Shown here: positions 20,677-38,944 of the stretch, piece by piece
Layout of the letters: each line of letters starts with the position of its first letter
Numbering within the stretch: position 1 is the stretch's first letter
Origin: Thermoleophilia bacterium
Lineage (GTDB): Bacteria > Actinomycetota > Thermoleophilia > Gaiellales > F1-60-MAGs149
Assembly: GCA_037133755.1 (NCBI GenBank)
Contig: JBAXNN010000001.1
Coordinates: 148,838-212,837, forward strand
Length of the DNA: 64,000 bases
Direction: 5' to 3'
Program-made: the position numbers and the translations under genes
Notes under the pieces: model-generated
What the model was told of the DNA's origin: nothing
Database searches by the model: none
Seen by the model: the letters and a program-made list of their open reading frames with translations, nothing else

Positions 20677-21504
20677 CTACTGGTGGTACGTCAGCGGCGT
20701 GGCCAGCGCCGGCGGCATCCCAGGCTGCGTGTAGGGCTCGAGGAGCAGAGGGTCACCAAAGAATTGGTTGTATTGGCCAGCGAGGTGGCAGTCATCGGGG
20801 TTACCGTAGGACTGCGCGGCCGGCAGGGTATCCCGGTGAACCTGACCGCCAACGGTGAGGACGGGTTCGTTTGCTCCCCCCTTGACTAGGGCGCCCTCTG
20901 CGGGGGTGACCTGCCCTGCCCCTTGGTTGAGGTACGCCTGGCCGCTGCAGTCTCCTGTCGTGTACAAGATCCAAGCACTACTAAGCTCACTGGCAGTGGC
21001 GCTGGGTTGAGCCAGTCCCGATGATGCATTGATTTTCCAAACGGCGCCATCCACCAGACGGTAGAAATCCCCGCTCACGACGGGGCTCCCCGGCGTCGGC
21101 GCGGGAAGCCACATGACACCGCTGACCGTGTTCCCGTTGGCGTCGCGGACGGTGACGCCACCGCTCGAGCCACCCGAGCCACTCGCTCCGGCCGGACCCG
21201 CCGGTCCCGCGGGACCCGCCGGACCCGCGGGACCCGCCGGACCCGCGGGGCCTTGCGCCCCGTCCTTGCCGTCAAGCCCCTTCAGGGCTCCCTTGCTCAG
21301 ATCGGAGACCTCGATCGCGCCGCTCGCGATGTCACCCGAGCCGATGGCCCCGTCCTTGATATCGGACGACTGCACCGCGCCCTCCCTGATCTGCGCAGAC
21401 CCGACCGAGTTGGGCGCCAGGGCGACGGCGGCGTAGCCCGTCCCTCCCAGCGCAACGAACAATGCGAGTGTGGCGATGACGGTCGCCGCCGAAGGTTTCT
21501 TCAT
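20677..21504 (-). CDS. Secreted collagen-like repeat protein (CLP1)
   Basis: The ATG at 21504 gives MKKPSAATVIATLALFVALGGTGYAAVA (signal peptide). Next come DI..GA decapeptide-like repeats, then a G-X-Y tract GKDGAQ(GPA)7GAS, then a ~165-aa C-terminal domain. Confidence 0.8.
   Translation of the reverse strand: MKKPSAATVIATLALFVALGGTGYAAVALAPNSVGSAQIREGAVQSSDIKDGAIGSGDIASGAIEVSDLSKGALKGLDGKDGAQGPAGPAGPAGPAGPAGPAGPAGASGSGGSSGGVTVRDANGNTVSGVMWLPAPTPGSPVVSGDFYRLVDGAVWKINASSGLAQPSATASELSSAWILYTTGDCSGQAYLNQGAGQVTPAEGALVKGGANEPVLTVGGQVHRDTLPAAQSYGNPDDCHLAGQYNQFFGDPLLLEPYTQPGMPPALATPLTYHQ
21175..21273 (-). repeat. Collagen-like G-X-Y tract encoded by 9-bp GGNCCCGCS tandem repeats
   Basis: ggacccgccggtcccgcgggacccgccggacccgcgggacccgccggacccgcgggg on the top strand encodes (GPA)n. 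Confidence 0.85.
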
Positions 21505-21544
21505 GCGCGCCACCGTACGCCAGCCCTCAAGCCGGTTGAACGCC

Positions 21545-21597
21545 CTGTATGGGTACCCCTATCGCCCGCGGCGCATCTGTATAGGTACCCCTATCGC
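21545..21597. promoter_or_regulatory. Cassette-1 direct repeats (candidate response-regulator operator)
   Basis: ctgtatgggtacccctatcgc (21545-21565) and ctgtataggtacccctatcgc (21577-21597) are 20/21 identical with a 32-bp period. They lie in the CLP1/RR1 divergent region. Confidence 0.6.
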
Positions 21598-21621: not shown

Positions 21622-22269
21622 GTGCTTCGCCTCCTCCTACTCGAAGACGAGGACCTGCTGCGACTCACGCTCGCCACGGCCCTGCCGGACGAGTCGATGG
21701 AGGTCGTCGGCGCGTATGGCGATGCCAAGAGCGCGATCGCGGCGGGTACGGAAACCGCGTTCGACGTGCTCGTCACCGACCTCGACTTGGCGCAGGGCCA
21801 AGGGCCGAACGGCATCGTGGTCGCCAACGTGCTGCGCCGCACGAAGCCGGAGATCGGCGTCGTGCTGCTGACGTCGTATGCGGATCCGCGCCTGGTCGGC
21901 ACGAAGCTCGACCAGCTCCCCGAGCGCACCGAGTACGTGCGCAAGCACGCGATCCGCGACATCGACACGCTGCGCGCCGCGATCCGTCGCGCAGCGCTGG
22001 GCGCGAATCAGCCGGAGGCGCTGGCGATCGAGGCGAACCTCACCGACACGCAGGTCGAGACCATGCGCCTCGTCGCGCAGGGCCTGAGCAACGCGGAGAT
22101 CGCGCGGCAGCGCGTCGTTACTGAGGGCGCCGTCGAGGTGTCGCTTCGCAGGATCGCCCGCAATCTCGGCTACAGCAACGACTCGACGCGGAACATCCGC
22201 GCGCTGATCGTGCGCGCGTACTTCGAGATGGCCGGGGCCAGTGGTGCCCAGCACAGGCAACCGTCCTAG
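21622..22269 (+). CDS. Response regulator, receiver plus LuxR/NarL-type HTH (RR1)
   Basis: 215 aa starting VLRLLLLEDEDLL, with the acceptor Asp in DVLVTDLDL, LLTSY, and the C-terminal HTH LTDTQVETMRLVAQGLSNAEIARQRVVTEGAVEVSLRRIARNLG. Confidence 0.9.
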   Translation: MLRLLLLEDEDLLRLTLATALPDESMEVVGAYGDAKSAIAAGTETAFDVLVTDLDLAQGQGPNGIVVANVLRRTKPEIGVVLLTSYADPRLVGTKLDQLPERTEYVRKHAIRDIDTLRAAIRRAALGANQPEALAIEANLTDTQVETMRLVAQGLSNAEIARQRVVTEGAVEVSLRRIARNLGYSNDSTRNIRALIVRAYFEMAGASGAQHRQPS

Positions 22270-23956
22270 CGCGCGCGACCTGCTCGGTGGCCGCTGGGCG
22301 ATCTCGCTGCGCGGCTGGCTGATCTTCTCCGCCGTCGTGCTGGTGATCGGGCCGCTCGGCCTCCGAGCCCAGCTGAAGGTGCCCACGCAGACGATCGTGG
22401 TGGTCGCACTCGCGGGGTGGCTGCTGATGACTCTCCTCTACGCGGCCGCCCACCTCACCGTCTTCCGCAACCGCCGCACCGCACCCGTGCACGTCGCGTG
22501 GCTGATCGTGCTCGGCCTCGCCGTCGGTATCGCCCGCACGGGCGTGGCGCTCGCCGTGCCCGCGAGCCGCGACGTGCTCGGCGGCGGCTGGGTGGCGGTG
22601 CTGACAGGCGCGCTGTGCTTCGTCCCGGTCTCCGTCCTCGTGGCGGTGCTGGTGACGTACCTGATCGCCGTCGTCGACTGGTACGCCGCCGAGCGTGCGC
22701 GACTGCTGCGCTTCGAGATCGACGCCGAGGCCGCGCGACTGCGCGCCGTCGGTGCGCTCAATGCCGCGCGCGCCGTCATCACCACACGAATCCAGACGGC
22801 GCTCGAAGACCAGCTGAGCGGACTCGAGCAGGCCGCCATGGCCGACGGTGCAGACGACCGGCTGTCCGACGCGCTGCTCGACACGGCCGCCGGCTACGTT
22901 CGGCCGGAGAGCCATCGGCTCTGGCAGGAGCGCGACCCCGCGCTGCGACGCGGCAGCCTCGCGGACCTCGAGCACGCGAGCCTTGCCGCGCCACTGCCGA
23001 TCGCGCTGCCCTTCGCGCTGTGGGCCGCGATCGTCATGCCCGCTGCGGCGGTGCACTTCGGCGGTCTCCGTTGGATCCCCAGTGCGCTGGCGTTGCTCGT
23101 CGCCATGGCGGTGCTCTATCCGCTGGGCCGGGCGGCTGTCCGCCGCTACGCCCCCGCTCCGCGTTACATGCGCGCGCGCCTGATCGCCCTCGTCGCCATG
23201 GCAACCGCGGGCGCCGCAAACGCCGGCACCGCCGCCCTGCTCGGCTCGCAGACCGCCACCCCGCTGCAGCAGGCGCTGCCGGCGGTCTTCATCGTCATCA
23301 TCACCGTCGTGGTCAGCTGGGCGCAGGCCGCCCTCCGCACGGAGGACGCGCGCTTGCGCTCCCTGCGGTCGCTCGCTGAGGAGGCCGACTTCGAGCGCCT
23401 CGCCCTCGAAGCCGCGACCGAGCAGATGCAGCGCGAGCTCGCGCTCTACCTCCACGGCACCGTGCAGGCCGGCCTCGTGGCCTCGGCCTACTCGATCCAG
23501 GACGCGGTGAACCGCGGCGACACCGTGGCGCTCGAGGCCGCGATCGCCGACGCCCGCGCCTCGATCGCGCGCGTCGGGCAGGACGCCGGCGAGCCGACGG
23601 TGCACGACCTCGTCTCCCTGCGCGCGGCGATCACCGAGCGCTGGGACGGCGCCATCGCCATCACGTGGGCTCTCCCGGCCACCGAGCCGGAACCCGCGAT
23701 CATCACCCGCATCGACAACGTGCTTCAGGAGTGCCTTGCCAACGCGTCGATCCACGGAGCCGCCAGCGAGGCGACCGTGCGCATCACGGTCGAGGACGAC
23801 TGCGCGATCGTGGAGGTGACGGACAACGGCACCGGTCCTGGCAATGGCAAGCCGGGCCTCGGCAGCGCCGTCCTCAACGAGGCGACCGGCGGCCAGTGGA
23901 CGATCGCGTCGGTGCCGACCGGTGGTGCGCAGGTGCGTGCCGTCGTGCCCAAGTGA
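22241..23956 (+). CDS. Membrane sensor histidine kinase, 8 predicted TM, HisKA_3-like DHp plus HATPase (HK1)
   Basis: The GTG at 22241 overlaps RR1 by 29 nt. There are four N-terminal TM segments, a ~110-aa helical soluble insert, and four more TM segments. Then come the H-box LALYLHGTVQAGL, the N-box ECLANASIHG, DNGTG and GLGSAVL. Confidence 0.8.
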   Translation: MVPSTGNRPSARDLLGGRWAISLRGWLIFSAVVLVIGPLGLRAQLKVPTQTIVVVALAGWLLMTLLYAAAHLTVFRNRRTAPVHVAWLIVLGLAVGIARTGVALAVPASRDVLGGGWVAVLTGALCFVPVSVLVAVLVTYLIAVVDWYAAERARLLRFEIDAEAARLRAVGALNAARAVITTRIQTALEDQLSGLEQAAMADGADDRLSDALLDTAAGYVRPESHRLWQERDPALRRGSLADLEHASLAAPLPIALPFALWAAIVMPAAAVHFGGLRWIPSALALLVAMAVLYPLGRAAVRRYAPAPRYMRARLIALVAMATAGAANAGTAALLGSQTATPLQQALPAVFIVIITVVVSWAQAALRTEDARLRSLRSLAEEADFERLALEAATEQMQRELALYLHGTVQAGLVASAYSIQDAVNRGDTVALEAAIADARASIARVGQDAGEPTVHDLVSLRAAITERWDGAIAITWALPATEPEPAIITRIDNVLQECLANASIHGAASEATVRITVEDDCAIVEVTDNGTGPGNGKPGLGSAVLNEATGGQWTIASVPTGGAQVRAVVPK

Positions 23957-24012: not shown

Positions 24013-24024
24013 TGGTCGGTCCGT

Positions 24025-27000
24025 CTACCCGACCTTGATCTTGATCGTGCGCACGATGCTCGTGCCGTTCTTGCGCTTGACCTTCATCTTCACCTTGTAG
24101 GTGCCGGGCTTCGACGCCACGAGCTTGCCGTTGACGAGGGTCAGGCCAGCCGGCAGGGCGTCGGCCATGTACTCGACCTTCGACGTCGGGCGCACCCAGA
24201 TGTTCGCGCCGCGCAGGAGGTCTGCACCAGCAGCCGGCGTGGCGGCGTCCAGGATGGCCTCACCGCGCGTCTCACCGACGGTGATGCCCGGCGCCGGCGA
24301 GAACACCGGCGGCGTCTCGACAGACGGGGTCGTCGCAGGCGGTGTCACGACCGGCGAGGCCGGCGACGGCACACGAATCGACGACTCGCTCAGAATCGCC
24401 AGCGCGTCAATTCGGTTCGAACCTGTCACGCGCACCCGCAGGTACCGACCGGCATCCGCGGCAGCCACGGTGTAGCTGCTTGTCGCAGCACCACTGCCCG
24501 AAGCGGTCTCCCACGTCGAACCATCCGCCGACGACTGCCACGCGTAGGCGTAGTCCGTCGCGAAGTCCCACGTGCCTGTCGACGCGGTCAATGTCGAGCC
24601 GATCCCAATCGTGCCCGAGACGACCGGCACAGCCGACGACGTCGGCGCGGGAATCGCGACCTGCGCCGTTGCCGCCGAGAACGCCTCTGCTGAGGCAGCC
24701 GCATTGGTGGCCGTCACCTTCACGCGCAGGTACTTGTTGTCGTCGGTCAGATCCACGACGTACTCCGCCGTATCTCCACCCTCACCGAGCGCAGCCGTCC
24801 AGCCATCCTGACCATTGGACGACACCTGCCACTCATACGCGTACCCCGCGTCAGTATCCGGCGCATTCGACCACGTACCTTGCGAGGCCGTCAGCGTCTC
24901 GCCAACCGTCGCCGTGCCCGAATTCTGCGGCGCATCCGCACCGCCCGCATTCATCGGCGGAGCAGGCACCGTCACGACCGAGCTGTACGCCGCATCCGAC
25001 CACGTCGCGCCGTTATGGGCAATGACACGGACCTTCAGATCCTTGCCGCCATACGACTCCGGCACCACGTACTCCGCGGTCGTCCCCGAAGCACCCGTGG
25101 CAGCCGTCCACGTGTCAGCACCACGGTTCGACACCAGCCAGCGATACGTATAGCGCTCCGGCGTATTAGTCCACTGACCGCTCGTCGCACTCACCGTGTT
25201 GCCAATCCCGACGTCGCCCGTCAGCTCCGGAGCACTACCGAACAGGATGGGCAACGCACCAACCGGAGTGCCTGGAATCGCCGCGAGGCTGTAATCGAGA
25301 GAGTTCACGGTCGCTAGACGGGCAGAGCTGGTGCCATCCAGCGACGCGATACCGACGCCGCTGTTCGCACCGTCTTGGATGACGTAATAGATGCCATTCT
25401 GGTCCACACCGATCCCGCCGTTGCCGTTCCCGGCATTCGAGCCGGCAGGGTTCGCGATGAACGACGGCTGCACATCGGAGCCAGTGACATCAGCACGTCC
25501 GATGGCAGCGTTGTTGTAGTAGGTCCAGTACACGTGGTCGCCATCGACCGCAATGCCTGCGACCCCAGCCGGCAGGCTGTCGACGAAGGTCTGACCCGTA
25601 CCGCCGGTGATTGGTGCCCGGCCGATTGCGCTGCCTGAGCCGGGGCCTCGGTGGTAGTAGATGTAGTGGGCGTCGCGCGCGAAGAAATGCATCGCGGTGT
25701 ACGTATTCGTGTCGATGAAGGTCGGGTCGTGCTCACTGCCGTCGATCTTCATCCGATGGATATACGTGTGACCGTTCACCCCGTTGTCGGTGAAGTAGAT
25801 GTACTGATCGTCAATGAGCACCCCGAAGAAATTCTGCGCTCCAGCGCTATAGATGCTGGCCGGCGCCGTGCTGCCATTGGCGGGAGCCACATAGATGTCG
25901 CCGCTGCAGCCCCAGACGTTGGTCGTGCCGTTGGAGGAAAAGCCCCAACCACCCGGATTCGCGTATGGCTGCAACGACGCACCATCAGCCATCAGTGATG
26001 CGCTCTTGACGTAGAGATGAGACAGCGTCGATAGTGCCGCCACCAGCGTGCTAGCGCTCGAGGCCGTGGCCGTGTTGCCGTTGAAGGCTGTGACCGTCAC
26101 GCGTACGTACTGGCCCACGTCGCCGGTCTGCGTGACATACCCGGCCGTGGCATTGCCAGGGCCCGTCGCGCTCACCCACGTCCCGAGAGCACCCGACGGC
26201 GACAACTGCCACTGGTAGGTGTACGTGATGTTCCCTGTGGACTCCGTCCACGCACCAGGCGTCGCAATCCTGAAGAGGCCGTTGAGCCTCACCGTCGGCG
26301 CGGTGTCGTTCACCGGCGCCGGTGGTGCGGCCACCACGACAGTCGCCGCCGAGTAGGCGGTCGTCAGCAGACCACCGGCCGCCCCGGCACGCACCTTGAG
26401 CCGTACCGTCTTGCCGATATCGGAGATGCCAGGCGCATAGGTGGCCTGGCCATTCGTGCCGGGAGCGGCCGACCACGTTGCGCCGCTATCGCTTGAGACT
26501 TGCCACACGTAGAACACCTGGGACGGCGTGGCCGACCACGTGCCGTCACCCGCCGTCAGCGTCTGCCCCACCGCAGGTGTCCCGCTGATCGTGGGCTGCG
26601 CACTGTTCGTGAGCGCAGCACCCAGTGGCGGCAGCGGGGTCCCGCCGCTGACATGCACCCGCGAGCGATTCGTCAAGTAGGTCATATCGGCGATTCCCGT
26701 CACAAGCGTCGGGTTGACGTCGGTACCGTCGAGCTTTGCGCTGCCAATCTGCCCACCGCTCCAATCGCGTGCCGCCCAGTACAGCCGGCTGCCCGTGGCA
26801 GTGATACCCCAGACCGTGCGCGAGTTCTGCGTGTCCAGCCACGTGTTGTTCTGATCGGTACCGTCGAGCTTGGCACGGCCGATGCGGTTGGAGTAGCTGG
26901 TGCTGACCCAGTACAGATAGGTGCCATCGGTGGTGATGCCGCGAACATCGCCCGTGTTGTTGACGAGCACCTGCGACGAGCCACCATCGATCGCTGTGCG

Positions 27001-28623
27001 GTAGATGGCATTGCCACCAAACGAGTACAGCCAGTTGGCATCGCCGGTCATGGCATGCCCCCACAGCACGCCGCTGCCGTCGGCGAAGTGCCGGATGTTG
27101 TGCTGGCCATCCACGTCGACTCGACCGATCCAGGTGTTCACCGAGCAGTTGTAATACAGGTACTCATCTGTGACGTACAAACTGCCAAGGCCGTAGTAGT
27201 TGCCGTCGTTACCCCGAACCGTGGAGCAGAGGGTGTCAACGAGCTCCGTTGCCGAGCCGGTTCCGTCGATGCTCTTCTGACAGATCTTGTCTGCATCCTG
27301 ACGCCCATAGAACATGGTGCTGTTCCATCCGAACGCGTCTTCTCTCGAACATGTGGTGCTGATGCTGTCGTCGCGACCGCCGGGAATCGCCACGCCCGTG
27401 GTGTCATTGATCCATGTAGAGCCCACCGCAGTGTTACCCGCCCAGTAGAGCGTCGTCGAGGGCAGCGGCGTCAGCGCAGCGATCGTCTGCGCCGACGAGT
27501 GCGCCGACGTCAGCACGCCGCCCGTCGCGCCCGCGCGCACCAGCACGCGAAGCTGTTTGCCGACATCGCCGCGCTTGGGCGCGTAGCTGCTCGTTGTCGC
27601 GTCAGCTCCTGCTCCGTTGGACCACGTGGATCCGCTGTCTGCCGACACCTGCCACTGGTAGTACACATCGTCAGGCGTGGCCGACCACGTTCCCGCATCG
27701 GCAGTGACGATCTCGCCCACCTGCACCGTGCCTGTTATCGCAGGCGCCGCGGAGAGGGTGAGCGCCGGACCGAGGGGCACCTTCGGCGTGCCCCCGATGA
27801 TCGAGATCTGATGGTTCTGGCCCGTTGCCGTGATGCCGGTGATCAGCGTCGGCTGCACATTCGTGCCGTTGAGGTTCGCCTTGCCGACCGTGCCTGGGAA
27901 GCGCGACGTCCAGAAGATGCTGCTGCCGTCGACCTCGACTCCCCAGACCTGGGCGGTCGACTGCGTGTCGAGCCAGGTGTGGTCGATACCGGTGCCGTCG
28001 AGGTTGGCGCGGTGGATGAAGCGGGAGTCAAACCCCGACCAGTAGATGTGCTGGCCGTCGACCGCGATCCCGCGCATGTCGAACCCGGCGTTGACGTTGT
28101 ACGTCGGGTCGATAGGTCCGCCGCTCTCAGGATTGACCCGGCGAATGCCCGCATAGCTATACCCGATGTACAGCCAATTCGCATCCGTGGTGAGGCTGTA
28201 GGGATAGTTGCCGTCCACGCCCCACGCGAAGTGCGGGTTGTTGTGGGTGCCGTCGAGGTTCGCTCGGCCGATCCACTTGCTGCGGACGCACGTGTAGAAG
28301 ATGTGCGAAGCAGATGCGGTGAAGCCCGCGATGCCGCACTGCGTATTCGCAACTGTTCGGTTCACGTTGCCGCCCGTCAGGTCCTGGGTGCAGATGTAGT
28401 TGCCACTCGTGCCGTACAGCGTGGTGGCGTCGGCGAAGAACGCGTACTCCGCCAGGCAGTTGGTGCTGACCGAGAAGTTGACGTTCGTGCCGTCCGTCGA
28501 CGCGGTGCCGATGCTCGAGTCGGCGCCCCAGTACAGGGACCCTGCTCGCGCCTGAGCCGAGAAAGTGCCGAACAGCGCGACAAGGAAAATGGCGATGACG
28601 GTCGCCGCCGAAGGCTTCTTCAT
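24025..28623 (-). CDS. Giant secreted protein: three YWTD/LDL-receptor-class-B-like beta-propeller regions alternating with Ig-like domains, plus a conserved C-terminal domain
   Basis: The ATG at 28623 gives MKKPSAATVIAIFLVALFGTFSAQARA, for 1532 aa. Recurrent blade motifs include LYWG/IYWS/IFWT/LYWA and IGRANLDGT/IGRAKLDGT/IGSAKLDGT. There are repeated ~90-aa modules of the type G.WS..P....Y.WQ.S.D.G..W......Y......D.G..LRV.V.A. Confidence 0.85.
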   Translation of the reverse strand: MKKPSAATVIAIFLVALFGTFSAQARAGSLYWGADSSIGTASTDGTNVNFSVSTNCLAEYAFFADATTLYGTSGNYICTQDLTGGNVNRTVANTQCGIAGFTASASHIFYTCVRSKWIGRANLDGTHNNPHFAWGVDGNYPYSLTTDANWLYIGYSYAGIRRVNPESGGPIDPTYNVNAGFDMRGIAVDGQHIYWSGFDSRFIHRANLDGTGIDHTWLDTQSTAQVWGVEVDGSSIFWTSRFPGTVGKANLNGTNVQPTLITGITATGQNHQISIIGGTPKVPLGPALTLSAAPAITGTVQVGEIVTADAGTWSATPDDVYYQWQVSADSGSTWSNGAGADATTSSYAPKRGDVGKQLRVLVRAGATGGVLTSAHSSAQTIAALTPLPSTTLYWAGNTAVGSTWINDTTGVAIPGGRDDSISTTCSREDAFGWNSTMFYGRQDADKICQKSIDGTGSATELVDTLCSTVRGNDGNYYGLGSLYVTDEYLYYNCSVNTWIGRVDVDGQHNIRHFADGSGVLWGHAMTGDANWLYSFGGNAIYRTAIDGGSSQVLVNNTGDVRGITTDGTYLYWVSTSYSNRIGRAKLDGTDQNNTWLDTQNSRTVWGITATGSRLYWAARDWSGGQIGSAKLDGTDVNPTLVTGIADMTYLTNRSRVHVSGGTPLPPLGAALTNSAQPTISGTPAVGQTLTAGDGTWSATPSQVFYVWQVSSDSGATWSAAPGTNGQATYAPGISDIGKTVRLKVRAGAAGGLLTTAYSAATVVVAAPPAPVNDTAPTVRLNGLFRIATPGAWTESTGNITYTYQWQLSPSGALGTWVSATGPGNATAGYVTQTGDVGQYVRVTVTAFNGNTATASSASTLVAALSTLSHLYVKSASLMADGASLQPYANPGGWGFSSNGTTNVWGCSGDIYVAPANGSTAPASIYSAGAQNFFGVLIDDQYIYFTDNGVNGHTYIHRMKIDGSEHDPTFIDTNTYTAMHFFARDAHYIYYHRGPGSGSAIGRAPITGGTGQTFVDSLPAGVAGIAVDGDHVYWTYYNNAAIGRADVTGSDVQPSFIANPAGSNAGNGNGGIGVDQNGIYYVIQDGANSGVGIASLDGTSSARLATVNSLDYSLAAIPGTPVGALPILFGSAPELTGDVGIGNTVSATSGQWTNTPERYTYRWLVSNRGADTWTAATGASGTTAEYVVPESYGGKDLKVRVIAHNGATWSDAAYSSVVTVPAPPMNAGGADAPQNSGTATVGETLTASQGTWSNAPDTDAGYAYEWQVSSNGQDGWTAALGEGGDTAEYVVDLTDDNKYLRVKVTATNAAASAEAFSAATAQVAIPAPTSSAVPVVSGTIGIGSTLTASTGTWDFATDYAYAWQSSADGSTWETASGSGAATSSYTVAAADAGRYLRVRVTGSNRIDALAILSESSIRVPSPASPVVTPPATTPSVETPPVFSPAPGITVGETRGEAILDAATPAAGADLLRGANIWVRPTSKVEYMADALPAGLTLVNGKLVASKPGTYKVKMKVKRKNGTSIVRTIKIKVG

Positions 28624-28663
28624 GCAAACCAACGTACGCGCGCGCTATAAGCCGCACGCGAAG

Positions 28664-28715
28664 GTGTCGTACTTACCGCCCCACTACCAACCGCAAGTGT
28701 CGTACTTCCCGCCCC
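28664..28715. promoter_or_regulatory. Cassette-2-type direct repeats upstream of the giant gene
   Basis: gtgtcgtacttaccgcccc (28664-28682) and gtgtcgtacttcccgcccc (28697-28715), period 33 bp. They are part of a 125-nt block (28591-28715) that matches 30767-30891 with 8 mismatches. Confidence 0.6.
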
Positions 28716-28792
28716 TCGGCGCGGCTCCAGGGCGTAGGCGCGCCGCGGTGCCGCGCTACGGGTAGCGCGTCCCGGAGGTCGCCCGCGCCGGC

Positions 28793-30799
28793 TCAGCCGG
28801 TGACGCCCGGCAGAGCCGGCGGGGGCGACACCACGACGGTGCGTGTCGTCGTGCGCGCAGTGCCACCGGTCGGCGTGAAGGTCGTCGTGACGACCACGGC
28901 ACGGCGCGTGGCGACGGCCTCGAGGTGGCAGATCAGCGTCACGGTCGTCGCGCGGGTCACCGTCTCGGTCGCAGTGCAGGCCGCACGCCGCGCCGATGAC
29001 ACCCGGCGATACACGCCACGCTGCGTGACACGACCAGCCGAAGGGAGGCGGATGCTGGTGATGATCGACGTACCGACGGTCCGCGACGACAGAGCACGAA
29101 ACCGATTCGACGGCGGCGTCGGAGCGGCAGCGGTCGCCGTCGGCGTGGATGCGGTGGTCGCCGCCGCCGCGCCGGGAGTCGTCGGAGCCGCGCTATCGAC
29201 GGTGAACGTCGCCGTCGCACTGGTCGCACCGGTGATCGTCACGCTGCACGTCGTCGAGGTACCCGTACAGGCTCCGCTCCAGCCCGCGAACGTCGAACCG
29301 CTGGCCGGCGTGGCCGTGAGCGTCACCGTGCTCGACAGCGTGAACGAGGCACTGCAGGTTGCCCCGCAGCTGATCCCGGCCAGTGACGAGACCACCGAGC
29401 CACTGCCGCTACCGGCAGTGGAAACGATGAGCAAGGCGCTCGTCGGGGCAGCGCGGGTGACGGCCTGGATCAACCCCGAGCCCACTTCGCCCCAGACAAC
29501 GGTCGTGGCTCCGTCAGGCGCGACGGCGATCTGAGGGTACCGGGCGTCCAGTCCCGCAGCGGAGAGGTCCGCAGGGGGATCAGCCACAGGATCGGGCCAG
29601 CTACCGCCTGCAGGGCGCGTTGCGGCCTGGACGGTGTGCGCCGAGTAGACATCTTCGTGCGCCCACACGACCGTTGTTGACCCGTCAAACGCGATCGCGA
29701 TCTGGGGGTTTTGGGCATCCTCAAGCGTCACGTAGAGCTCGGACGATGTGCCCCAGGTGTTCGACCCGGCAGGGCGGGTAGCAGCCTGGATGGAGTTGAC
29801 CGCGAAGCCGTCAGTGTTGTGCCACACGACCGTTGCGGACCCATCGGACGCGATCGCGAGCTTGGGGTATCGGGCATCCTCACCCATCGCAGAGAGGACG
29901 GCCGGTATGCCCCAGGTGTTCGACCCGGCGGGGCGGGTGGCAGCCTGAATGGAGTTAACCGAGAGGCCGTCTTGGCGCTGCCACACGACCGTGGCGGTTC
30001 CGTCGGATGCGATCGCGATCTGGGGGTTCTGCGCATCCTCACCCGTCGCGGAGAGGACGGCCGGTGCGCCCCAGGTGTTCGATCCGGCAGGGCGGGTGGC
30101 AGCCTGGATGGAGTACCCCGAGGGGCCCTCGGAGTGCTGCCACACGACCGTTGCGGACCCATCGGACGCGATTGCGATCTCGGAGTAGAAGGAGATCTCG
30201 CCCACCACGGAGAGGTTCACGGGAGTGTCAACCGCAGGGTCGGGCCAGCTGCCCCCTGCGGGGCGCGTTGCGGCCTGGATGACGTAGCCGCCGGAGCCGT
30301 CGTCGGCGTACCACACGGCAGTTGCGGCGCCGTCGGCCGCAATAGCGATCTGGGGTAGATAGGCAAACGTACTCACCATGGAGATTTCCACGGGAGGACC
30401 CCAGGTGTTCGAGCCGGCGGGGCGGGTAGCAGCACAGATGCGGTCGTCGCTTGCCCAGATGGCCGTGGCCGATCCGTCGGCCGCAATAGCGATCTGGGGG
30501 TATGTGTTGTTCTGCCCCGTCACCGAGAGGACGTCCAACGTGCCCCACGTATTCGATCCGGCAGGGCGCGTGGCGGCCTGGATGATGTAGTTCGTGCCGT
30601 CGAAGTGGGACCAGACTGCCGTGGCGGCTCCATCGGGCGCGACGGCGATCTGCTGACTGCTATTCCCAGTCGTCGCGGCAACGTCAACGGGCGCACCCCA
30701 CGTGACTGCCTCGGCCGACGACGACGACGCGAGGACGACGGCCATCGACACGGCGAATGCGAGTGCGGCGATGACGGTCGCCGCCGAAGGCTTCTTCAT
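28793..30799 (-). CDS. Secreted repeat protein (7-8 units of ~48-53 aa, beta-propeller-like), Ig-like GWSGAC-type domain, PAT linker, Cys-containing C-terminal domain ending in VTG
   Basis: The ATG at 30799 gives MKKPSAATVIAALAFAVSMAVVLASSSSAEA. The unit is IQAATRPAGSNTWG.P..LS..G..A..PQIAIA.DG.ATVVW. The three central units are 159-bp DNA repeats (ccccaggtgt at 29751, 29910 and 30069). Confidence 0.8.
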   Translation of the reverse strand: MKKPSAATVIAALAFAVSMAVVLASSSSAEAVTWGAPVDVAATTGNSSQQIAVAPDGAATAVWSHFDGTNYIIQAATRPAGSNTWGTLDVLSVTGQNNTYPQIAIAADGSATAIWASDDRICAATRPAGSNTWGPPVEISMVSTFAYLPQIAIAADGAATAVWYADDGSGGYVIQAATRPAGGSWPDPAVDTPVNLSVVGEISFYSEIAIASDGSATVVWQHSEGPSGYSIQAATRPAGSNTWGAPAVLSATGEDAQNPQIAIASDGTATVVWQRQDGLSVNSIQAATRPAGSNTWGIPAVLSAMGEDARYPKLAIASDGSATVVWHNTDGFAVNSIQAATRPAGSNTWGTSSELYVTLEDAQNPQIAIAFDGSTTVVWAHEDVYSAHTVQAATRPAGGSWPDPVADPPADLSAAGLDARYPQIAVAPDGATTVVWGEVGSGLIQAVTRAAPTSALLIVSTAGSGSGSVVSSLAGISCGATCSASFTLSSTVTLTATPASGSTFAGWSGACTGTSTTCSVTITGATSATATFTVDSAAPTTPGAAAATTASTPTATAAAPTPPSNRFRALSSRTVGTSIITSIRLPSAGRVTQRGVYRRVSSARRAACTATETVTRATTVTLICHLEAVATRRAVVVTTTFTPTGGTARTTTRTVVVSPPPALPGVTG

Positions 30800-30839
30800 G
30801 CGCGCCAACGTACGCGCGCGCTATAAGCCGCACGCGAAG

Positions 30840-30891
30840 GTGTCGTACTTCCCGCCCCACCAGCAGCCGCAAGTGTCGTACTTACCGCCCC
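30840..30891. promoter_or_regulatory. Cassette-2 direct repeats (candidate RR2 operator)
   Basis: gtgtcgtacttcccgcccc (30840-30858) and gtgtcgtacttaccgcccc (30873-30891) are 18/19 identical with a 33-bp period. Confidence 0.6.
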
Positions 30892-30919: not shown

Positions 30920-30928
30920 GCTCGCATG

Positions 30929-31576
30929 ATGCTGCGCGTGCTGCTGATCGAGGACGAGGACCTCCTTCGCCTCGCCCTTGCCTCCATGCTGCCCGACGAG
31001 ACGATCGAGGTCGTCGGGGCGTTCGCGGATGGCGCGAGCGCCGTGGAGGCCGCGAAGACGACCGATTTCGACGTGCTCGTCACCGACCTCGACCTGGGGA
31101 ACGAGCAGGCGCCGAACGGCATCGTTGTCGCCAACGTCCTGCGTCGCACAAAGCCCGACATCGGCATCGTGCTGCTGACGTCGTATGCGGATCCGCGGCT
31201 CGTCGGCGCCAAGCTCAACCAAGTGCCCGACCGCACTGAGTACATCCGCAAGCAGTCGGTGCGGGACATGGACGCGCTGCGCGCCGCGATTCGCCGCGCG
31301 GCATACGCCCACACCGACGTGATGACGCCGCTGCCCGAGGTCGAATTGACCGATGGGCAGATCGAGACGATGCGACTCGTCGCGCAAGGGCTCACCAACA
31401 GCGAGATCGCGCGCCAGCGCGTCGTGTCGGAGCGCACCGTCGAGAAGTCGATCCAGCGGATCGCACAGGTGCTCGGCGCGACCGGGGACTCGACGACCAA
31501 CACGCGCGTGCTGCTCGTGCGCGCGTACTTCGAGCTCGCCGGGGGCAAGGGTGCCCAAGACAAGCTCCCGTCCTAG
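30929..31576 (+). CDS. Response regulator, receiver plus LuxR/NarL-type HTH (RR2)
   Basis: MLRVLLIEDEDLL..DVLVTDLDL..LTDGQIETMRLVAQGLTNSEIARQRVVSERTVEKSIQRIAQVLG. I prefer the second ATG (30929) over 30926, by alignment with the paralogs and the -10 spacing. Confidence 0.9.
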   Translation: MLRVLLIEDEDLLRLALASMLPDETIEVVGAFADGASAVEAAKTTDFDVLVTDLDLGNEQAPNGIVVANVLRRTKPDIGIVLLTSYADPRLVGAKLNQVPDRTEYIRKQSVRDMDALRAAIRRAAYAHTDVMTPLPEVELTDGQIETMRLVAQGLTNSEIARQRVVSERTVEKSIQRIAQVLGATGDSTTNTRVLLVRAYFELAGGKGAQDKLPS

Positions 31577-33260
31577 CGCGCGCGAGCTGCTGGGTGGCCG
31601 CTGGGCGATCTCGGTCCGCGGCTGGCTGATCCTCTCTGTCGTCACCGTGATCAGCGCGATCGGGATCCGAGCGCAGTTGGGCGTCTCGACGCCGGCCGCG
31701 GCAGCGTTCACGCTCGCGTTCTGGCTGCTGGCGACAGCCATGTTCGTGGCTGCGCACCTGACCATCTTCCGTAACCGCCGCACCAAGCCCGTCCACATCG
31801 CGTGGCTGATCGCGTTCGCCATCAGCATTGGGATCGTGCGCGTGGCCGTGGCGTTTGCCGTCCCCGAGATCCGTGCCGCGCTGGGCGATGGCTGGCCGGG
31901 CGCATTCACAGCCGTCGTCTCCTTCGTCCCGGGCACAGTGCTGCTCGTCGTGCTGGTCGCGTACCTCCTCGCCGTGACCGACTGGTACGCCTCCGAGCGC
32001 ATACGGCTTCTGCACTTCGAGATCGACGCCGAAGCCGCGCGCCTGCGTGCCATCGGCGCGCTCAATGCCGCGCGCTCGGTGATCACCACCCGCATTCAAA
32101 CAGCGCTCGAGGGCCAGCTGAGCGAACTCGAACGCGCCGCCAAGGTCGATGACGCCGACGTGCGCCTCTCCGACGTGCTCCTCGACACCGCCGTCGGGTA
32201 CGTGCGCCCCGAGAGCCACCGGCTCTGGCAGGAGCGCGATCCCGCCCTGCGCCGCGGCACCCTTGCCGACGTCGAACGAGCGAGCCTCTCCGCCCCCCTG
32301 CCGATCGCGCTGCCCTTCGCGCTGTGGGCGGTCGTCATCGTCCCCGTGGCCATGGTGCGCTTCGGCGCCGGACACGGAATGTTGAGCGCACTCGCCGTGC
32401 TGACCGCCATGGCCGTGCTCTATCCGCTCGGTCGCGCTGCCGTCCGCCGCTACACGCCCGCACCACGCTATATCCGCGCGCGCCTGCTCACGCTCGTGTT
32501 CATGGCGGGCGCCGCCCTCGCCGGACCAGGCACGACGCTGCTGGGTGGGGCGAACACCACGCTGCAGCTGCAGCAGATCATGGCCGCCTTGATGATCGTC
32601 GTCGCGACGATCGCCGTCAGCTGGGCCCAGGCCGCACTCCGCGCGCAGGATGCGCGTCTGCGCTCCCTGCGCTCCCATGCCGAGGAGGCCGACTTCGAGC
32701 GCCTCGCGCTCGAGGCCGCGACCGAGCAGATGCAGCGCGAGCTCGCGCTCTATCTCCACGGCACGGTGCAGGCCGGCCTCGTGGCGTCGGCGTACTCGAT
32801 CCAGGACGCCGCCAATCGCGGCGACTCCGAGGCGCTCGAGACGGCGATCGCCGACGCCCGCTCCGCCATCGCGCAGCTGGGCAATGACGACGAGCGCGCG
32901 GCGATGGTCGACTTCGCCGAGCTGTCGCAGCGGTTTGACGCGAAGTGGCGCGGCATGATCGCGATCACCTGGGAGCTGCCAGGCGAGGCGACGACCGACG
33001 TGGCGCTGCAGCGCGTCAGCGACGTGGTGCAGGAGTGCCTCGCCAACGCCACGATCCACGGTGCCGCGACGGAGGCGACCGTGCGCGTCGTCGTCGAGGA
33101 CGACAGCGCGATCGTCGAGGTCACCGACGACGGCACCGGTGTCGGTGACGGCAAGCCCGGCCTCGGCAGCGCCGTCCTCAACGAGGCGACGGGCGGCCGA
33201 TGGACGATCGCGTCGATGCCGACCGGTGGCGCGCAGGTGCGCGCCGTCGTGCCGGTCTAG
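31551..33260 (+). CDS. Membrane sensor histidine kinase paralog (HK2)
   Basis: The GTG at 31551 (VPKTSSRPSARELLGGRWAIS) aligns with the starts of the other three kinases and overlaps RR2 by 26 nt. The longer track ORF from 31353 runs through RR2 in another frame. Architecture and H/N/G boxes match HK1. Confidence 0.8.
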   Translation: MPKTSSRPSARELLGGRWAISVRGWLILSVVTVISAIGIRAQLGVSTPAAAAFTLAFWLLATAMFVAAHLTIFRNRRTKPVHIAWLIAFAISIGIVRVAVAFAVPEIRAALGDGWPGAFTAVVSFVPGTVLLVVLVAYLLAVTDWYASERIRLLHFEIDAEAARLRAIGALNAARSVITTRIQTALEGQLSELERAAKVDDADVRLSDVLLDTAVGYVRPESHRLWQERDPALRRGTLADVERASLSAPLPIALPFALWAVVIVPVAMVRFGAGHGMLSALAVLTAMAVLYPLGRAAVRRYTPAPRYIRARLLTLVFMAGAALAGPGTTLLGGANTTLQLQQIMAALMIVVATIAVSWAQAALRAQDARLRSLRSHAEEADFERLALEAATEQMQRELALYLHGTVQAGLVASAYSIQDAANRGDSEALETAIADARSAIAQLGNDDERAAMVDFAELSQRFDAKWRGMIAITWELPGEATTDVALQRVSDVVQECLANATIHGAATEATVRVVVEDDSAIVEVTDDGTGVGDGKPGLGSAVLNEATGGRWTIASMPTGGAQVRAVVPV

Positions 33261-35425
33261 CCGACCTTGATCTTGATCGTCCGCAGCTTGGTCGTACCGT
33301 TGGCGCGCTTGACCTTCACCTGCACCTTGTAGGTACCGGGTACCGTCGCGACGAGCTTGCCATTGACGACCTTGAGGCCCGCCGGCAACGCATCGGGCAC
33401 GTACTCGACCTTGGACGTCGAGCGGACCCAGATGTTCGCACCGCGGAGGAGATCCGCGCCTGCAGCCGGCACGGCTGCGGCTAGATTCGCCTCACCACGC
33501 GTCTCGCCGACGGTGATGCCCGGCGCCGGCGAGAACACCTGGGGTGTCTCCGGCGAAGGCTCTGCCACCGGCGTGACGACTGGTGCGACCGGCGCAGCCG
33601 GTGTCGGCACGCGAATCGACGAAGCGCTCGTGGATTCCTGCGAGTCGACGCGATTCGTACCCGTTACGCGCACACGCAGGTACCGGCCCGCGTCCGCTGC
33701 GGCGACGATGTAGGTGTTCGTCGCGGCACCCGTGCCGGGAGCCGTCTGCCACGTTGAGCCGTCCACAGACGATTCCCATGCGTAGGCGTAACCCGTGGCG
33801 AAATCCCACGTGCCCGTCGAGGCCGTCAGCGTGGAGCCGATCGTGACCGTGCCCGTGATCGCCGGCACCTCCGTCGGCGACGGCGGGAGGATGTCGACAA
33901 GCGTCTGCGTGTACGCCGTCGCGACGTTTGAGCCGCCGTCGTTCGTTGCCGTCACCTGCGCCCGCAGGTACTTGTTGTCGTCGGTCATGTCCACGTCGTA
34001 CGTCGCCGAATCCGCGCCGTCACCGAGCGCGGGCTCCCACGTATCCGGAGCCCCGGAGGCCGACACCTGCCACGCATACGCGTACGCCGTTGGCTGCTGC
34101 TGCGATGCCCATGAACCTGTATCGACCGACAGCGTTTCGCCGACCTGGACCGTGCCCGTCAGCTGTGGCGTGACGCTGCTGACCGGCGCCACCGGCAGCA
34201 CCGCATTGGTCGCCATCGAGTACCCGACCGTGGCGCCGCCGTCGTTGGTCGCCGTCACCTTGACGCGCAGGAACTGGGCGTACTCGGCGGCAGCCGGGTA
34301 GTAGCTCGCCGTCGCGGTGCCCGTGCCCGCACCTGTCACCCAGCCGGACTCGCCGTTCGGCGATACCTGCCAGAGGTAGGTATACCCGCTGGCGTCGGCC
34401 GGCGGATTCATCCACGTCCCGGTCCCTGCCGAGAGCACCACATCAACCTTGGGCGTGCCGGTGATCGCCGGCGCCACCGTGTTGATCGGCGACGGTAGCG
34501 GCAGCAGCTTGGCCGTACCGCCAACGACCTTCAGCTGCGCGTGCTCGTTGCTCGAGGAGATACCAGCGCCGGTGATCAGACTCGAGTTCGCGTTGGCACC
34601 GCTGAGATCGGCGCGGCCGATCGCACCGCCGCCACTACGCCGCGCCCAGTAGATCGAGCTGCCGGTCACCGTCACACCGAACGTGTCCGAGCCGGAGCTG
34701 AGCCACGAAGCATTCGAGCCGGTGCCATTGAGTTTCGCCCGCCCGATGGTCGTACCGTTGTTGATGGCCCAGTAGACGTGCCGGCCATCGACGTCGATGC
34801 TGCGCACATCGCCGACACACAGGCTGAAGTTCGGATCGACGCCACTCCCGTCGATGTGGTAACGCTGCATGCAGCTGTACACGCCCGTGTTCCCCACGTA
34901 CAGCCAGTCATCACCCGCCGCGATCGCAGTCGTGTAACTGTCGTTCGGACCTGCGGGCGTCGCCGTGAAGTTCAAGATCGGATTCGTGCCCGCGACATCC
35001 ACCCTGCCGAGCCGGCTCGTGTTCATGCACGCCCAGTAGACGTATAGATCCGTCGCGTAGATGCCGCCGACCCCCAGGCCCCCACACCCGGTGGCGACGA
35101 GCGTCGACGAGCTGCCCGTGCCATCGAGCCGCATCTGGCAGATGTCGCTGTTGGAACGGCTGTAGTACATGGTGCTGTTCGCAGACCAGCTCCAGTCGCC
35201 GTTGCAGCCGGTGCTGACCGCATTGTTCGGGCTGCCCGATAGCACGCCCGTGGCGTCATCGATCTCCTGCGTGCCGACCGACGAGTTGCCCGCCCAGTAG
35301 ATGGAGGCCGCCGATGCCTGTGCGACTGAGCATGTGAGCAGTCCGCACAGAGCGAGGACGCCCACGAGGACAGGGCGGTGAAGCCGTGGGCGGAGAACGG
35401 CAGAGAACGACAAGAAACGCGGCAT
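33257..35425 (-). CDS. Secreted YWTD-propeller/Ig-like mosaic protein (paralog of the giant protein) with the same C-terminal domain
   Basis: 722 aa with signal-like MPRFLSFSAVLRPRLHRPVLVGVLALCGLLTCSVAQASA. Contains IYWAGNSS, VYWAC, IGRAKLNGT and IGRADLSG blades and four Ig-like modules. The last ~95 aa align with the giant protein C-terminus (PQVFSPAPGITVGETRGEA...IKIKVG). Confidence 0.85.
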   Translation of the reverse strand: MPRFLSFSAVLRPRLHRPVLVGVLALCGLLTCSVAQASAASIYWAGNSSVGTQEIDDATGVLSGSPNNAVSTGCNGDWSWSANSTMYYSRSNSDICQMRLDGTGSSSTLVATGCGGLGVGGIYATDLYVYWACMNTSRLGRVDVAGTNPILNFTATPAGPNDSYTTAIAAGDDWLYVGNTGVYSCMQRYHIDGSGVDPNFSLCVGDVRSIDVDGRHVYWAINNGTTIGRAKLNGTGSNASWLSSGSDTFGVTVTGSSIYWARRSGGGAIGRADLSGANANSSLITGAGISSSNEHAQLKVVGGTAKLLPLPSPINTVAPAITGTPKVDVVLSAGTGTWMNPPADASGYTYLWQVSPNGESGWVTGAGTGTATASYYPAAAEYAQFLRVKVTATNDGGATVGYSMATNAVLPVAPVSSVTPQLTGTVQVGETLSVDTGSWASQQQPTAYAYAWQVSASGAPDTWEPALGDGADSATYDVDMTDDNKYLRAQVTATNDGGSNVATAYTQTLVDILPPSPTEVPAITGTVTIGSTLTASTGTWDFATGYAYAWESSVDGSTWQTAPGTGAATNTYIVAAADAGRYLRVRVTGTNRVDSQESTSASSIRVPTPAAPVAPVVTPVAEPSPETPQVFSPAPGITVGETRGEANLAAAVPAAGADLLRGANIWVRSTSKVEYVPDALPAGLKVVNGKLVATVPGTYKVQVKVKRANGTTKLRTIKIKVG

Positions 35426-35465
35426 TCGTCCACGCTAAGCCACGTCCCGCATCTGCTGACCGACC

Positions 35466-35515
35466 TGTCGTACTGCCCGTATCGCGCCTCGAGCGTGTGT
35501 CGTACTGCCCGTATC
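35466..35515. promoter_or_regulatory. Cassette-3 direct repeats (candidate RR3 operator)
   Basis: tgtcgtactgcccgtatc at 35466-35483 and 35498-35515, 18/18 identical, 32-bp period. Confidence 0.6.
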
Positions 35516-35541: not shown

Positions 35542-36189
35542 ATGCTGCGCGTGCTTCTACTCGAGGACGAAGCCCTGCTGCTGATGATGCTCGCGTCCAC
35601 GCTGCCCGACGAGACGATGACCGTCGTCGGCGCATTCGAGGACGCCAAGAGCGCGGTTGCCGCGGCGGCCGAGACGCCGTTCGACGTGCTCGTCACCGAC
35701 CTCAACCTGACCGCCGGTCTCGGCCCGAACGGCATCGTCGTCGCCAACGTCATCCGGCGCGCGCATCCGGAGGCCGGCATCGTGATGCTCACGTCCTATG
35801 CCGATCCGCGGCTCGTCGGCGCGAAGCTCGAGCAGGTGCCCGACCGAACGGAGTACGTCCGCAAACACGACGTGCGCGACATCGAGGTGCTGCGTGCCGT
35901 GATTCGCCGGGCCGCCTACGGCTCCCTCGATCGCCTGGCCGACCTGCCGGCGATCGAACTCACCGACACGCAGGTCGAGACGATGCGACTTGTCGCCCAG
36001 GGCCTCAGCAATGCCGAGATTGCACGGCTGCGCGTCGTGTCCGAGCGCGCCGTCGAGCAGACGGTCAACCGGATCGCCCGCAGCCTTGGCTGCGGCAACG
36101 ACTCGAGCGTCAACTCGCGGGCGCAGATCGTCCGCGCGTACTACGAGCTGACTGGCAGCGGCGGTGCCCACAACTCTCTCTCGTCCTAG
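35542..36189 (+). CDS. Response regulator, receiver plus LuxR/NarL-type HTH (RR3)
   Basis: MLRVLLLEDEALL..DVLVTDLNL..LTDTQVETMRLVAQGLSNAEIARLRVVSERAVEQTVNRIARSLG. Confidence 0.9.
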   Translation: MLRVLLLEDEALLLMMLASTLPDETMTVVGAFEDAKSAVAAAAETPFDVLVTDLNLTAGLGPNGIVVANVIRRAHPEAGIVMLTSYADPRLVGAKLEQVPDRTEYVRKHDVRDIEVLRAVIRRAAYGSLDRLADLPAIELTDTQVETMRLVAQGLSNAEIARLRVVSERAVEQTVNRIARSLGCGNDSSVNSRAQIVRAYYELTGSGGAHNSLSS

Positions 36190-38828: not shown

Positions 38829-38868
38829 GCGTCCACGCTATGCCAGCCCGCAGGGCGGTTCATCGTCG

Positions 38869-38918
38869 TGTGAGGATTCCCGTAGGTGGTTTCCCACAAC
38901 TGTCGTGTTTACCGTAGA
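38869..38918. promoter_or_regulatory. Cassette-4 repeats (one good site plus a degenerate upstream copy)
   Basis: tgtcgtgtttaccgtaga lies at 38901-38918. The copy 32 bp upstream (38869-38886) conserves only the 3' half (t.ccgtag). Confidence 0.4.
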
Positions 38919-38929
38919 CGGCGGTGAAC

Positions 38930-38935
38930 TACACT
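38930..38935 (+). promoter_or_regulatory. Candidate -10 box TACACT for RR4
   Basis: The hexamer end is 10 nt before the ATG at 38945. Confidence 0.45.
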
Positions 38936-38944
38936 CGCCACACG

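Follow-up and report, generated by a model that had tools for sequence, protein, structure and literature searches.

A shared 33-nt gene start in a Thermoleophilia two-component locus as the probable coding end of a promoter-plus-start module

A 64,000-nt stretch of the genome of a Thermoleophilia bacterium (assembly GCA_037133755.1, contig JBAXNN010000001.1, forward-strand positions 148,838 to 212,837; this whole stretch is called the window and is numbered from its first base) contains four secreted-protein genes that begin with nearly the same 33 nt, coding for the leader MKKPSAATVIA. Two of them encode the collagen-like proteins (CLPs) CLP1 and CLP2, and the other two encode the proteins here called B and Y. 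Our reading, to which we give a probability of about 0.68, is that the 33-mer forms the coding end of a compact module of promoter and start codon, as opposed to a free-standing element. The near-identity of the copies would then have three sources: shared descent combined with recency (B is 96% identical in this region to a CLP gene of the related contig L005, and Y is 92% identical to B), amino-acid constraint on a conserved N-terminal motif, and a modest added constraint on synonymous sites of the kind usual at the 5' end of an mRNA. The related contigs used for comparison (L001-L010) come from metagenome-assembled genomes (MAGs) of Thermoleophilia and Actinobacteria and from metagenome contigs.

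The shared leader and its promoters

The window was searched with the pattern GGCGATRACGGTCGCCGCCGAAGGYTTCTTCAT, allowing up to three mismatches. Exactly four matches were found, at the four positions given by an earlier reading of this DNA made without database searches (the sequence-only reading), compared with none in 100 dinucleotide-preserving shuffles (chance expectation 0). Every copy has the minus-strand form ATGAAGAA(A/G)CCTTCGGCGGCGACCGT(C/T)ATCGCC, and all four start minus-strand open reading frames (ORFs) with MKKPSAATVIA. The four copies and the genes that carry them are as follows.

21472..21504, minus strand: leader copy A, codons 1-11 (MKKPSAATVIA) of the collagen-like CLP1
28591..28623, minus strand: leader copy Y, first 11 codons of the YWTD/DUF5050-Ig protein (1532 aa), at the 3' end of the 131-nt module common to Y and B
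30767..30799, minus strand: leader copy B, first 11 codons of the 53-aa-repeat protein (668 aa), whose promoter and start are orthologous to those of the L005 CLP gene
38796..38828, minus strand: leader copy D, codons 1-11 of the collagen-like CLP2
20677..21504, minus strand: CLP1, 275 aa, G-P-A collagen-like repeats
24025..28623, minus strand: Y, 1532 aa, YWTD/DUF5050/LDL-receptor-B propellers and Ig-like repeats
28793..30799, minus strand: B, 668 aa, repeats offset by 159 nt (53 aa) and an InlB-B-like domain
37944..38828, minus strand: CLP2, 294 aa, collagen-like

The sequence-only reading had placed the leader on four unrelated secreted genes. Four genes do carry it; CLP1 and CLP2 are paralogues, however, so that only three unrelated gene classes are represented. 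The bodies of Y and B are unrelated to one another.

Two independent encodings of KKPSAATVIA would be expected to differ in 4.9 of their 10 codons under the codon usage of the locus, whereas the window copies differ in 0-2. The leader identity is thus due to copying, and codon bias is ruled out as its cause. The conserved island does not begin at the ATG. In every pair it runs from approximately -20 to +33, and between Y and B it extends over 98 more upstream bases, to give 131 nt at 92% identity. Sliding comparisons between cassettes (the regulator/kinase gene pairs divergent from the target genes, described below) show 75-80% identity across the regulator genes, an intergenic dip to ~40-55%, and a peak of 90-96% at about -20 to +35. 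After ~+35 identity drops to background in the A/B and B/D comparisons, with weak similarity of B persisting to around codon 15-20.

Four tandem pairs of response regulator and histidine kinase genes lie in this part of the window. Each is divergent from one target gene, three of which carry the leader; Y, downstream of B, lacks a dedicated regulator.

21622..23956, plus strand: cassette A, NarL/LuxR-type response regulator 21622-22269 and histidine kinase ~22241-23956; divergent from CLP1
30926..33260, plus strand: cassette B, response regulator 30926-31576 and kinase ~31551-33260; divergent from B
35542..37873, plus strand: cassette C, response regulator 35542-36189 and kinase 36164-37873; divergent from the 722-aa gene
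38924..41279, plus strand: cassette D, response regulator 38924/38945-39592 and kinase 39567-41279; divergent from CLP2
33257..35425, minus strand: 722-aa gene, a Y paralogue and the cassette C target, with the same promoter geometry and its own leader, MPRFLSF...

All five target promoters of the window follow one layout. Two direct repeats of 18-19 nt with a period of 32-33 bp occupy approximately -91 to -73 and -59 to -41; a gap of 26-27 nt separates them from a TAnnnT hexamer, which is followed by GG, and the ATG stands 6-7 nt past the hexamer (hexamer at -13 to -8 or -12 to -7). The repeats are clear at this fixed position in four of the five promoters and degenerate in the case of cassette D. 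These repeats are probably binding sites for the response regulators.

21512..21517, minus strand: -10-like hexamer TACGGT, 7 nt upstream of the CLP1 ATG
28631-28636, minus strand: -10-like hexamer TACGTT of Y
30807-30812, minus strand: -10-like hexamer TACGTT of B
35432-35437, minus strand: -10-like hexamer TAGCGT of the 722-aa gene
38835-38840, minus strand: -10-like hexamer TAGCGT of CLP2
21545..21597, minus strand: predicted cassette A operator, direct repeat GATAGGGGTACC(T/C)ATACAG in two copies set 32 bp apart (-59..-41; -91..-73)
28659..28715, minus strand: predicted Y operator, two direct repeats GGGGCGG(G/T)AAGTACGACAC 33 bp apart; a copy of the B operator
30830..30891, minus strand: predicted cassette B operator, two direct repeats GGGGCGG(T/G)AAGTACGACAC 33 bp apart
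35465..35515, minus strand: predicted cassette C operator, repeat GATACGGGCAGTACGACA in two identical copies set 32 bp apart, upstream of the leader-free 722-aa gene
38868..38918, minus strand: predicted cassette D operator, two degenerate repeats, TCTACGGTAAACACGACAG and CCTACGGGAATCCTCACAC, found by alignment and missed by the repeat search

The layout is not confined to the window. It recurs in nine further genes at eight loci (every leader-bearing gene from other genomes), and also in a YWTD-type gene of L007 (at 187) that has a different N-terminus. All 11 leader-bearing genes compared have the hexamer with its GG 6-7 nt before the ATG, as does the L007 gene at 187, and the hexamer of L010 occupies the same place. 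Among the 137 long ORFs of the window, TAnnnT occurs 5-12 nt upstream of the first start codon in 11, compared with 0-1 at other offsets. TANNNT is the actinobacterial -10 consensus: in Mycobacterium tuberculosis, a species rich in leaderless transcripts, it is centred 7-12 bp before mapped transcription starts (PMC3898074). The mRNAs of these genes are therefore inferred to be leaderless or nearly so, with a predicted start at or within ~1-3 nt of the ATG.

No Shine-Dalgarno (SD) sequence is found between hexamer and ATG: the intervening bases vary (GGCGCGC, GGTTTGC, GGACGC and others) and lack GGAG, GAGG and AGGA. SD-led initiation was accordingly rejected, as the conserved GG after the hexamer differs in spacing and context between genes. 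A GTG/TTG start at -9 was also considered and rejected. A 6-nt spacer puts this codon out of frame; the conserved ATG is therefore taken as the start codon, and annotated starts of these genes belong there and not at upstream in-frame GTG/TTG codons. Leaderless initiation had been raised by the sequence-only reading, and both the hexamer spacing and the missing SD sequence make it plausible. As such initiation needs only a 5' AUG, it does not by itself explain the conservation of 33 nt. A sigma-70 consensus scan recovered none of these promoters, which is expected for activator-dependent actinobacterial promoters and is uninformative.

Similar signals are seen on the regulator side. The regulator genes (starts at 30926, 35542, 38924 and 21622) have a TA(G/C)ACT hexamer 6-9 nt upstream of their start codons, and the distal operator repeat ends ~11 nt upstream of this hexamer. 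Both divergent genes are therefore possibly leaderless and share one operator, an arrangement that may allow autoregulation. The operators themselves have diverged, with a palindromic TAGGGGTACC(T/C)ATA type in cassette A and an ACGG(G/T)nAGTACGACA type in B, Y, C and D. This divergence after amplification looks like a natural example of paralogue insulation.

Origin of the leader and of the chimeric genes

The native context of the leader was sought with a peptide-level degenerate pattern, third positions left free, in genome and metagenome collections. This gave five sites in three MAGs plus four metagenome contigs, and all nine leader sites outside the window are on collagen-like genes adjoining regulator/kinase pairs. 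In contrast, the leader is present in none of the 119 best homologues of B and in none of 113 homologues of Y residues 1-420, which carry ordinary, family-typical signal peptides. On this distribution the leader belongs originally to the collagen-like family, and its presence on B and Y is secondary. Among the loci compared, the module sits on non-CLP genes in the window lineage only. The possibility of a generic signal peptide, named by the sequence-only reading as an outcome that would count against it, does not hold: the 722-aa gene (start at 35425) and the L007 gene at 187 encode exported proteins and lack the leader, which elsewhere is found only on CLPs.

Residues 4-26 of the CLPs fall within a widespread N-terminal signal/anchor motif, ..PS(A/P)A(T/L)VI(A/S)x(L/I)ALFVALGGT(G/S)YAA, as revealed by an exhaustive HMMER search with the CLP N-terminus. 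An earlier word-index protein search with the same query had given 16 distant matches; the exhaustive search of representatives returned 13,390 clusters (50% identity) at E<=1e-3, many of them matching via the GAVxxxDIxDG repeats that follow. Neither Pfam nor NCBIfam has a model for the ..ALFVALGGTxYAA N-terminal region (CLP1 21259-21504, CLP2 38553-38828, ~80 residues). In L007, the CLP2 orthologue (locus 96.5% identical) starts MKNPSAATVIA. The distant member L010 has MRTPSAATVIATLALF, encoded with CCG TCC GCC GCC and placed behind TATCAT-6nt-ATG; it keeps the peptide and recodes four of eight codons, which argues for constraint at the peptide level.

Two side observations concern relatives of the leader. 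Some members of the motif family are giant proteins (2-4.7 kaa) in which 13-42 repeat stretches are matched. In L007, a 547-aa non-collagen secreted protein (3473-5116) starts MQKLSPVRVIATLTLL, 7 of 33 nt away from the leader; the gene lies 4 nt past an upstream stop codon and has no promoter of its own, making it a diverged, operon-internal and non-leaderless relative.

Comparison with L005 identifies B as a chimera, because L005 carries the B-type promoter and leader on a CLP body. The two promoters differ at 5 of 132 nt (96% identity) and at none of the 33 leader positions; beyond the leader there are 3/12 mismatches at +34 to +45 and 17/30 afterwards. B thus combines the promoter and start of a CLP gene with a 53-aa-repeat body, the joint lying between +33 and ~+46. 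A possible precursor is suggested by L009 (600-4750), in which genes for a CLP, for the closest B homologue (53% identity) and for a further CLP-like protein follow one another head to tail, every one of them behind a repeat-bearing promoter, and a response regulator gene comes next. We hypothesise that an in-frame deletion in an L009-like arrangement would yield B.

In the case of Y, the shared segment is the module itself:

28591..28721, minus strand: 131-nt promoter-plus-leader module, 92% identical to 30767-30897, comprising both repeats, the hexamer, the ATG and the coding start to +33

Y and B differ at 10 of the 98 upstream positions, at none of the 33 leader positions and at 8 of the 12 positions directly after, such that identity collapses at +34 as well as just upstream of the distal repeat. 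The rest of the Y signal peptide, IFLVALFGTFSAQARA, aligns with the matching part of the 722-aa paralogue. Y is hence a chimera as well, with the joint at +33/34. By inspection only, the signal peptides read MKK...IFLVALFGTFSAQA|RA for Y and MKK...VVLASSSSAEA|VT for B.

These junctions would follow from promoters of this kind. We propose that the shared DNA reaches into the ORF because the promoter abuts the start codon: without a 5' untranslated region (UTR), a transplanted promoter would have to carry the start codon along, and an in-frame junction in the tolerant n/h region of a signal peptide would offer a natural route to rewire a gene. B would in this way have come under the cassette-B regulator with an export-competent N-terminus kept, while Y would have stayed, or have been duplicated, under the same regulator, its N-terminus likewise remaining competent for export. 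For a regulon growing with leaderless mRNAs, rewiring would mean in-frame fusion to the first codons of another gene, which the N-terminus of a signal peptide tolerates.

The leader copies of CLP1 and CLP2 lie in a longer region of low divergence:

21345..21524, minus strand: CLP1 side of the low-divergence 5' tract, ~-20 to +160; partner 38669-38848

As the sequence-only reading had stated, only two residues differ in the first 53 codons (R40K and E41D); 12 of the first 159 nt differ. The C-terminal domains, on the other hand, are barely alignable. The proportion of synonymous differences (pS) is 0.24 in codons 1-11, 0.11 in codons 12-30, 0.35 in codons 31-53, 0.36 in codons 54-80 and 0.61-0.76 beyond, with 0.15 for codons 1-30 taken together, whereas the four regulator paralogues give a baseline of 0.31-0.44 (~0.40). 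Synonymous divergence along the pair is thus non-uniform, which favours the mosaic evolution proposed by the sequence-only reading. Over +34 to +159, CLP1 differs from CLP2 at 10 of 126 positions, from L007a at 11 and from the other CLPs at 20-23 (23/126 for L004b), among them the CLPs that accompany the closest regulator/kinase relatives of cassette A. The cassette A regulator and kinase, in contrast, match the L004/L006/L008 type at 77-81% and cassette D at only 70%. This incongruence between tract and flank, seen in difference counts over few taxa, points to conversion or recombination between CLP1 and CLP2. The exchanged tract spans roughly -20 to +90, fading by +160 to +250, and on these comparisons it predates the split from the L007 lineage. 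The earlier suggestion of recent copying or gene conversion is borne out by the pS gradient, by the CLP2-like 5' end of CLP1 and by the 0-2 codon differences, against 4.9 expected, between leader copies.

L007 has one cassette 96.5% identical to cassette D of the window and a second cassette, whose CLP gene has a promoter and 5' 180 nt identical to those of L004, L006 and L008, three contigs that elsewhere match the window at only ~78%. Either L007 is a true recombinant genome, or its metagenome assembly is chimeric.

Weighing the alternatives

Several findings count against the module as we describe it. Copy number of the leader and the range of genes bearing it were counted within the 64-kb window. 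Both fusions end at the same nucleotide, +33, which simple descent does not predict. Across nine CLP genes, 6 of 10 leader codons are invariant compared with 7 of 42 in codons 12-53 (Fisher p = 0.01), and the rare CCT codon (10% of proline codons) is retained in 10 of 11 copies; these invariant codons hint at extra constraint at the nucleotide level. Regulator binding to the repeats is a prediction, and the leaderless state is read from promoter geometry. On the latter point L009 differs, as the same hexamer stands 38 nt, and not 26-27 nt, from the repeat, and the L009 CLP at 836 has a 5' UTR of ~25 nt with AGGAG. This is a leadered form of a related promoter, and therefore the family is not uniformly leaderless.

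Taken together, the common end point and the codon data could instead mean that the 33 nt form a discrete functional unit required by leaderless, regulator-dependent genes of this lineage, whether at the RNA/DNA level or as the minimal recognition part of an undescribed and very widespread N-terminal sorting signal (..PSAATVIA-xLALFVALGGTxYAA), a view we regard as rather unlikely. Were it true, it would explain both the exact retention of 11 codons in two independent fusions and the halved synonymous variation. RNA/DNA-level variants could involve a determinant of 70S initiation or mRNA stability, or an operator or recombination site formed by the imperfect palindrome GGCGA-N6-TCGCC (+18 to +33), which ends exactly where both fusions end. 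Taken on its own, a nucleic-acid element at +1 to +33 (a hairpin, a site for a small RNA or RNA-binding protein, a leaderless translation enhancer, or a palindromic operator or recombination hot spot) seems quite improbable to us. It would account for the retained CCT, for the position of the palindrome end and for the reduced synonymous variation among nine CLP genes (0.18 codon differences per comparison within codons 2-11, as opposed to 0.35 within codons 12-53), although this excess constraint appears modest and of a kind common at gene 5' ends. Two small hairpins are also predicted (GAAG-N4-CUUC and GGCGA-N6-UCGCC), with the variable sites +9, +12, +18 and +27 placed in their loops or terminal pairs. 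However, seven 5' segments folded no more stably than shuffled sequences (z -1.4 to +0.7), and the hairpins show no compensatory change: all nine departing cells break pairs, the hairpins are broken in L002, L003, L004b and L010, and L010 loses both while keeping the peptide. The whole window has no Rfam match, and it holds no complementary k-mer of at least 12 nt that could act as an antisense partner (one sense-strand 12-mer occurs by chance). A structured RNA element was therefore rejected, and the regulatory RNA target put forward by the sequence-only reading finds no support in the window. Furthermore, two targets with the same promoter geometry, the 722-aa gene and the L007 gene at 187, do without the 33-mer, and, with the amino acids held constant, neutral divergence of ~10% would leave about the 0/33 mismatches seen between Y and B.

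If selection instead acts on the peptide, the 11 residues might be a specialised targeting or sorting signal kept on all four proteins, with nucleotide identity as a by-product. The deep conservation of the surrounding motif in very many proteins, the recoded L010 that preserves the peptide, and the retention of exactly 11 residues by both fusions speak for this; even so we consider it unlikely. In B and Y just the first third of the motif remains and ALFVALGGTxYAA is missing, the homologues of both use ordinary, unrelated signal peptides, and the Y paralogue at this very locus has a different leader. Neither Pfam nor NCBIfam matches the region, no sorting machinery was found, and co-transfer of the promoter would go unexplained. 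Ongoing concerted evolution, in which repeated short-tract conversion among paralogous starts maintains a segment under no selection, is suggested by the evident CLP1/CLP2 tract, by the upstream homology that paralogous promoters offer and by the 92% identity of the Y/B module. It is nevertheless very improbable, as the leader is equally conserved between species and within the genome (0-4 differences) while its flanks are ~20% different. CLP2 shares a T at +27 with its orthologue L007a and has not been homogenised to the C of the other three copies, and Y and B, being 10% different just upstream, were not recently converted. Finally, the 131-nt module resembles a mobile promoter akin to a miniature inverted-repeat transposable element inserting upstream of genes, since a similar upstream region before non-homologous genes is the operational definition of such promoters (PMC3488235). 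This we find hardly credible: the full module has only two copies in 64 kb, with no terminal inverted repeats at its ends and no transposase nearby; one copy stands in its ancestral place beside its own regulator gene, and the homologous modules elsewhere are all fixed parts of two-component cassettes.

Known systems and other features of the locus

A promoter-plus-start module of this kind has partial parallels. The vlp/vsp lipoprotein families of Mycoplasma are tandem paralogues with a conserved promoter and leader and divergent mature regions, and they undergo phase variation via promoter repeats or site-specific inversion; nothing like this phase variation is seen at the window locus. YSIRK-G/S and KxYKxGKxW signal peptides place an N-terminal motif on differing mature proteins in many genes and species, with free synonymous variation, whereas here the non-CLP carriers are two genes of one genome, identical at the DNA level together with the promoter. 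Closer still is the upstream homology box family of Borrelia burgdorferi (ospE/ospF/elp, Erp), with OspE/F-like leader peptides, reportedly described by Marconi in 1996 and Akins in 1999. Paralogues of this family have a near-identical upstream region and leader start before unrelated or diverged mature parts, which is accepted to have arisen by recombination. In Borrelia the products are lipobox-bearing lipoproteins, and the genes reside on cp32 prophage plasmids and give SD-led mRNAs. The likeness lies in a common upstream region and leader-coding start before differing mature parts; unlike in Borrelia, the present genes are chromosomal, with putative Sec-type signals, the predicted operator of a dedicated two-component system and a start codon abutting the predicted -10 box. 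The references given in PMC10016077 include work on these 'upstream homology box' families.

Promoter propagation by putative mobile promoters (Matus-Garcia, Nijveen and van Passel, NAR 2012, PMC3488235; also PMC3575422) likewise places near-identical promoters before non-homologous genes of one genome and so rewires regulation, as seen for Y and B, which share 131 nt at 92% identity in front of unrelated bodies. The difference is that the first 11 codons are included here, and that duplication and fusion are local to one amplified locus with no sign of mobility: within the 64-kb window, only local copies and neither transposase nor terminal repeats were found. As in leaderless actinobacterial genes (Cortes et al. 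2013, PMC3898074; Zheng et al. 2011, PMC3160421), TANNNT precedes the ATG by a few bases with no SD sequence, an arrangement frequent in the window, except that in the present case the start is predicted from sequence. Rewiring of genes by recombination is tidy here, yet not unprecedented, and none of these results overturns current understanding. The locus does provide a natural series for paralogue insulation in two-component systems (one cassette versus four, diverged operators and three kinds of target), as well as for promoter capture and short-tract gene conversion.

The four cassettes (~21.6-23.9, 30.9-33.3, 35.5-37.9 and 38.9-41.3 kb) are paralogous and 70-77% identical to each other by self-BLAST of the window. 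The relatives L002, L004 and L006 have a single cassette, with flanks matching ~14.7-20.6 kb and 40.6-43.7 kb of the window, and the cassette has therefore been amplified approximately four-fold in the window lineage. All four regulators match PF00072 (receiver) and PF00196 (GerE/LuxR helix-turn-helix), while MadR- and NarL-like NCBIfam matches are far under their cut-offs, and the kinase HATPase_c match (25.7 bits) is slightly under 26.4. For the CLPs, the Gly-X-Y triplet run of CLP1 is GAQGPAGPAGPAGPAGPAGPAGPAG; the Pfam Collagen score of 24.3 bits is under the cut-off of 27.2, and Scl-/Lcl-like NCBIfam matches are far under theirs. CLP1 and CLP2 may thus be described as collagen-like in composition, and membership of the Scl or Lcl family is not claimed. 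Protein B is identical to P0017, the Thermoleophilia MAG protein WCN97_00825.

Y and the 722-aa gene share a 3' end of ~830 nt at 76% identity (24023-24848 and 33255-34089), ending ...KIKVG, and the same C-terminal module terminates two L007 genes (at 3468 and 5116). Between the convergent cassette C kinase gene and CLP2 lies a 42-nt near-perfect palindrome (37900-37941, 95%), probably a bidirectional terminator. Other long inverted repeats or palindromes are located at 43820-43931 (112 nt, 86%), 14471-14574 (104 nt, 83%) and 7694-7743 (50 nt, 84%). Internal DNA repeats at 62311-62672 and 62866-63332, with offsets of ~69, 135 and 280 nt and 66-75% identity, probably belong to a repeat-containing gene.

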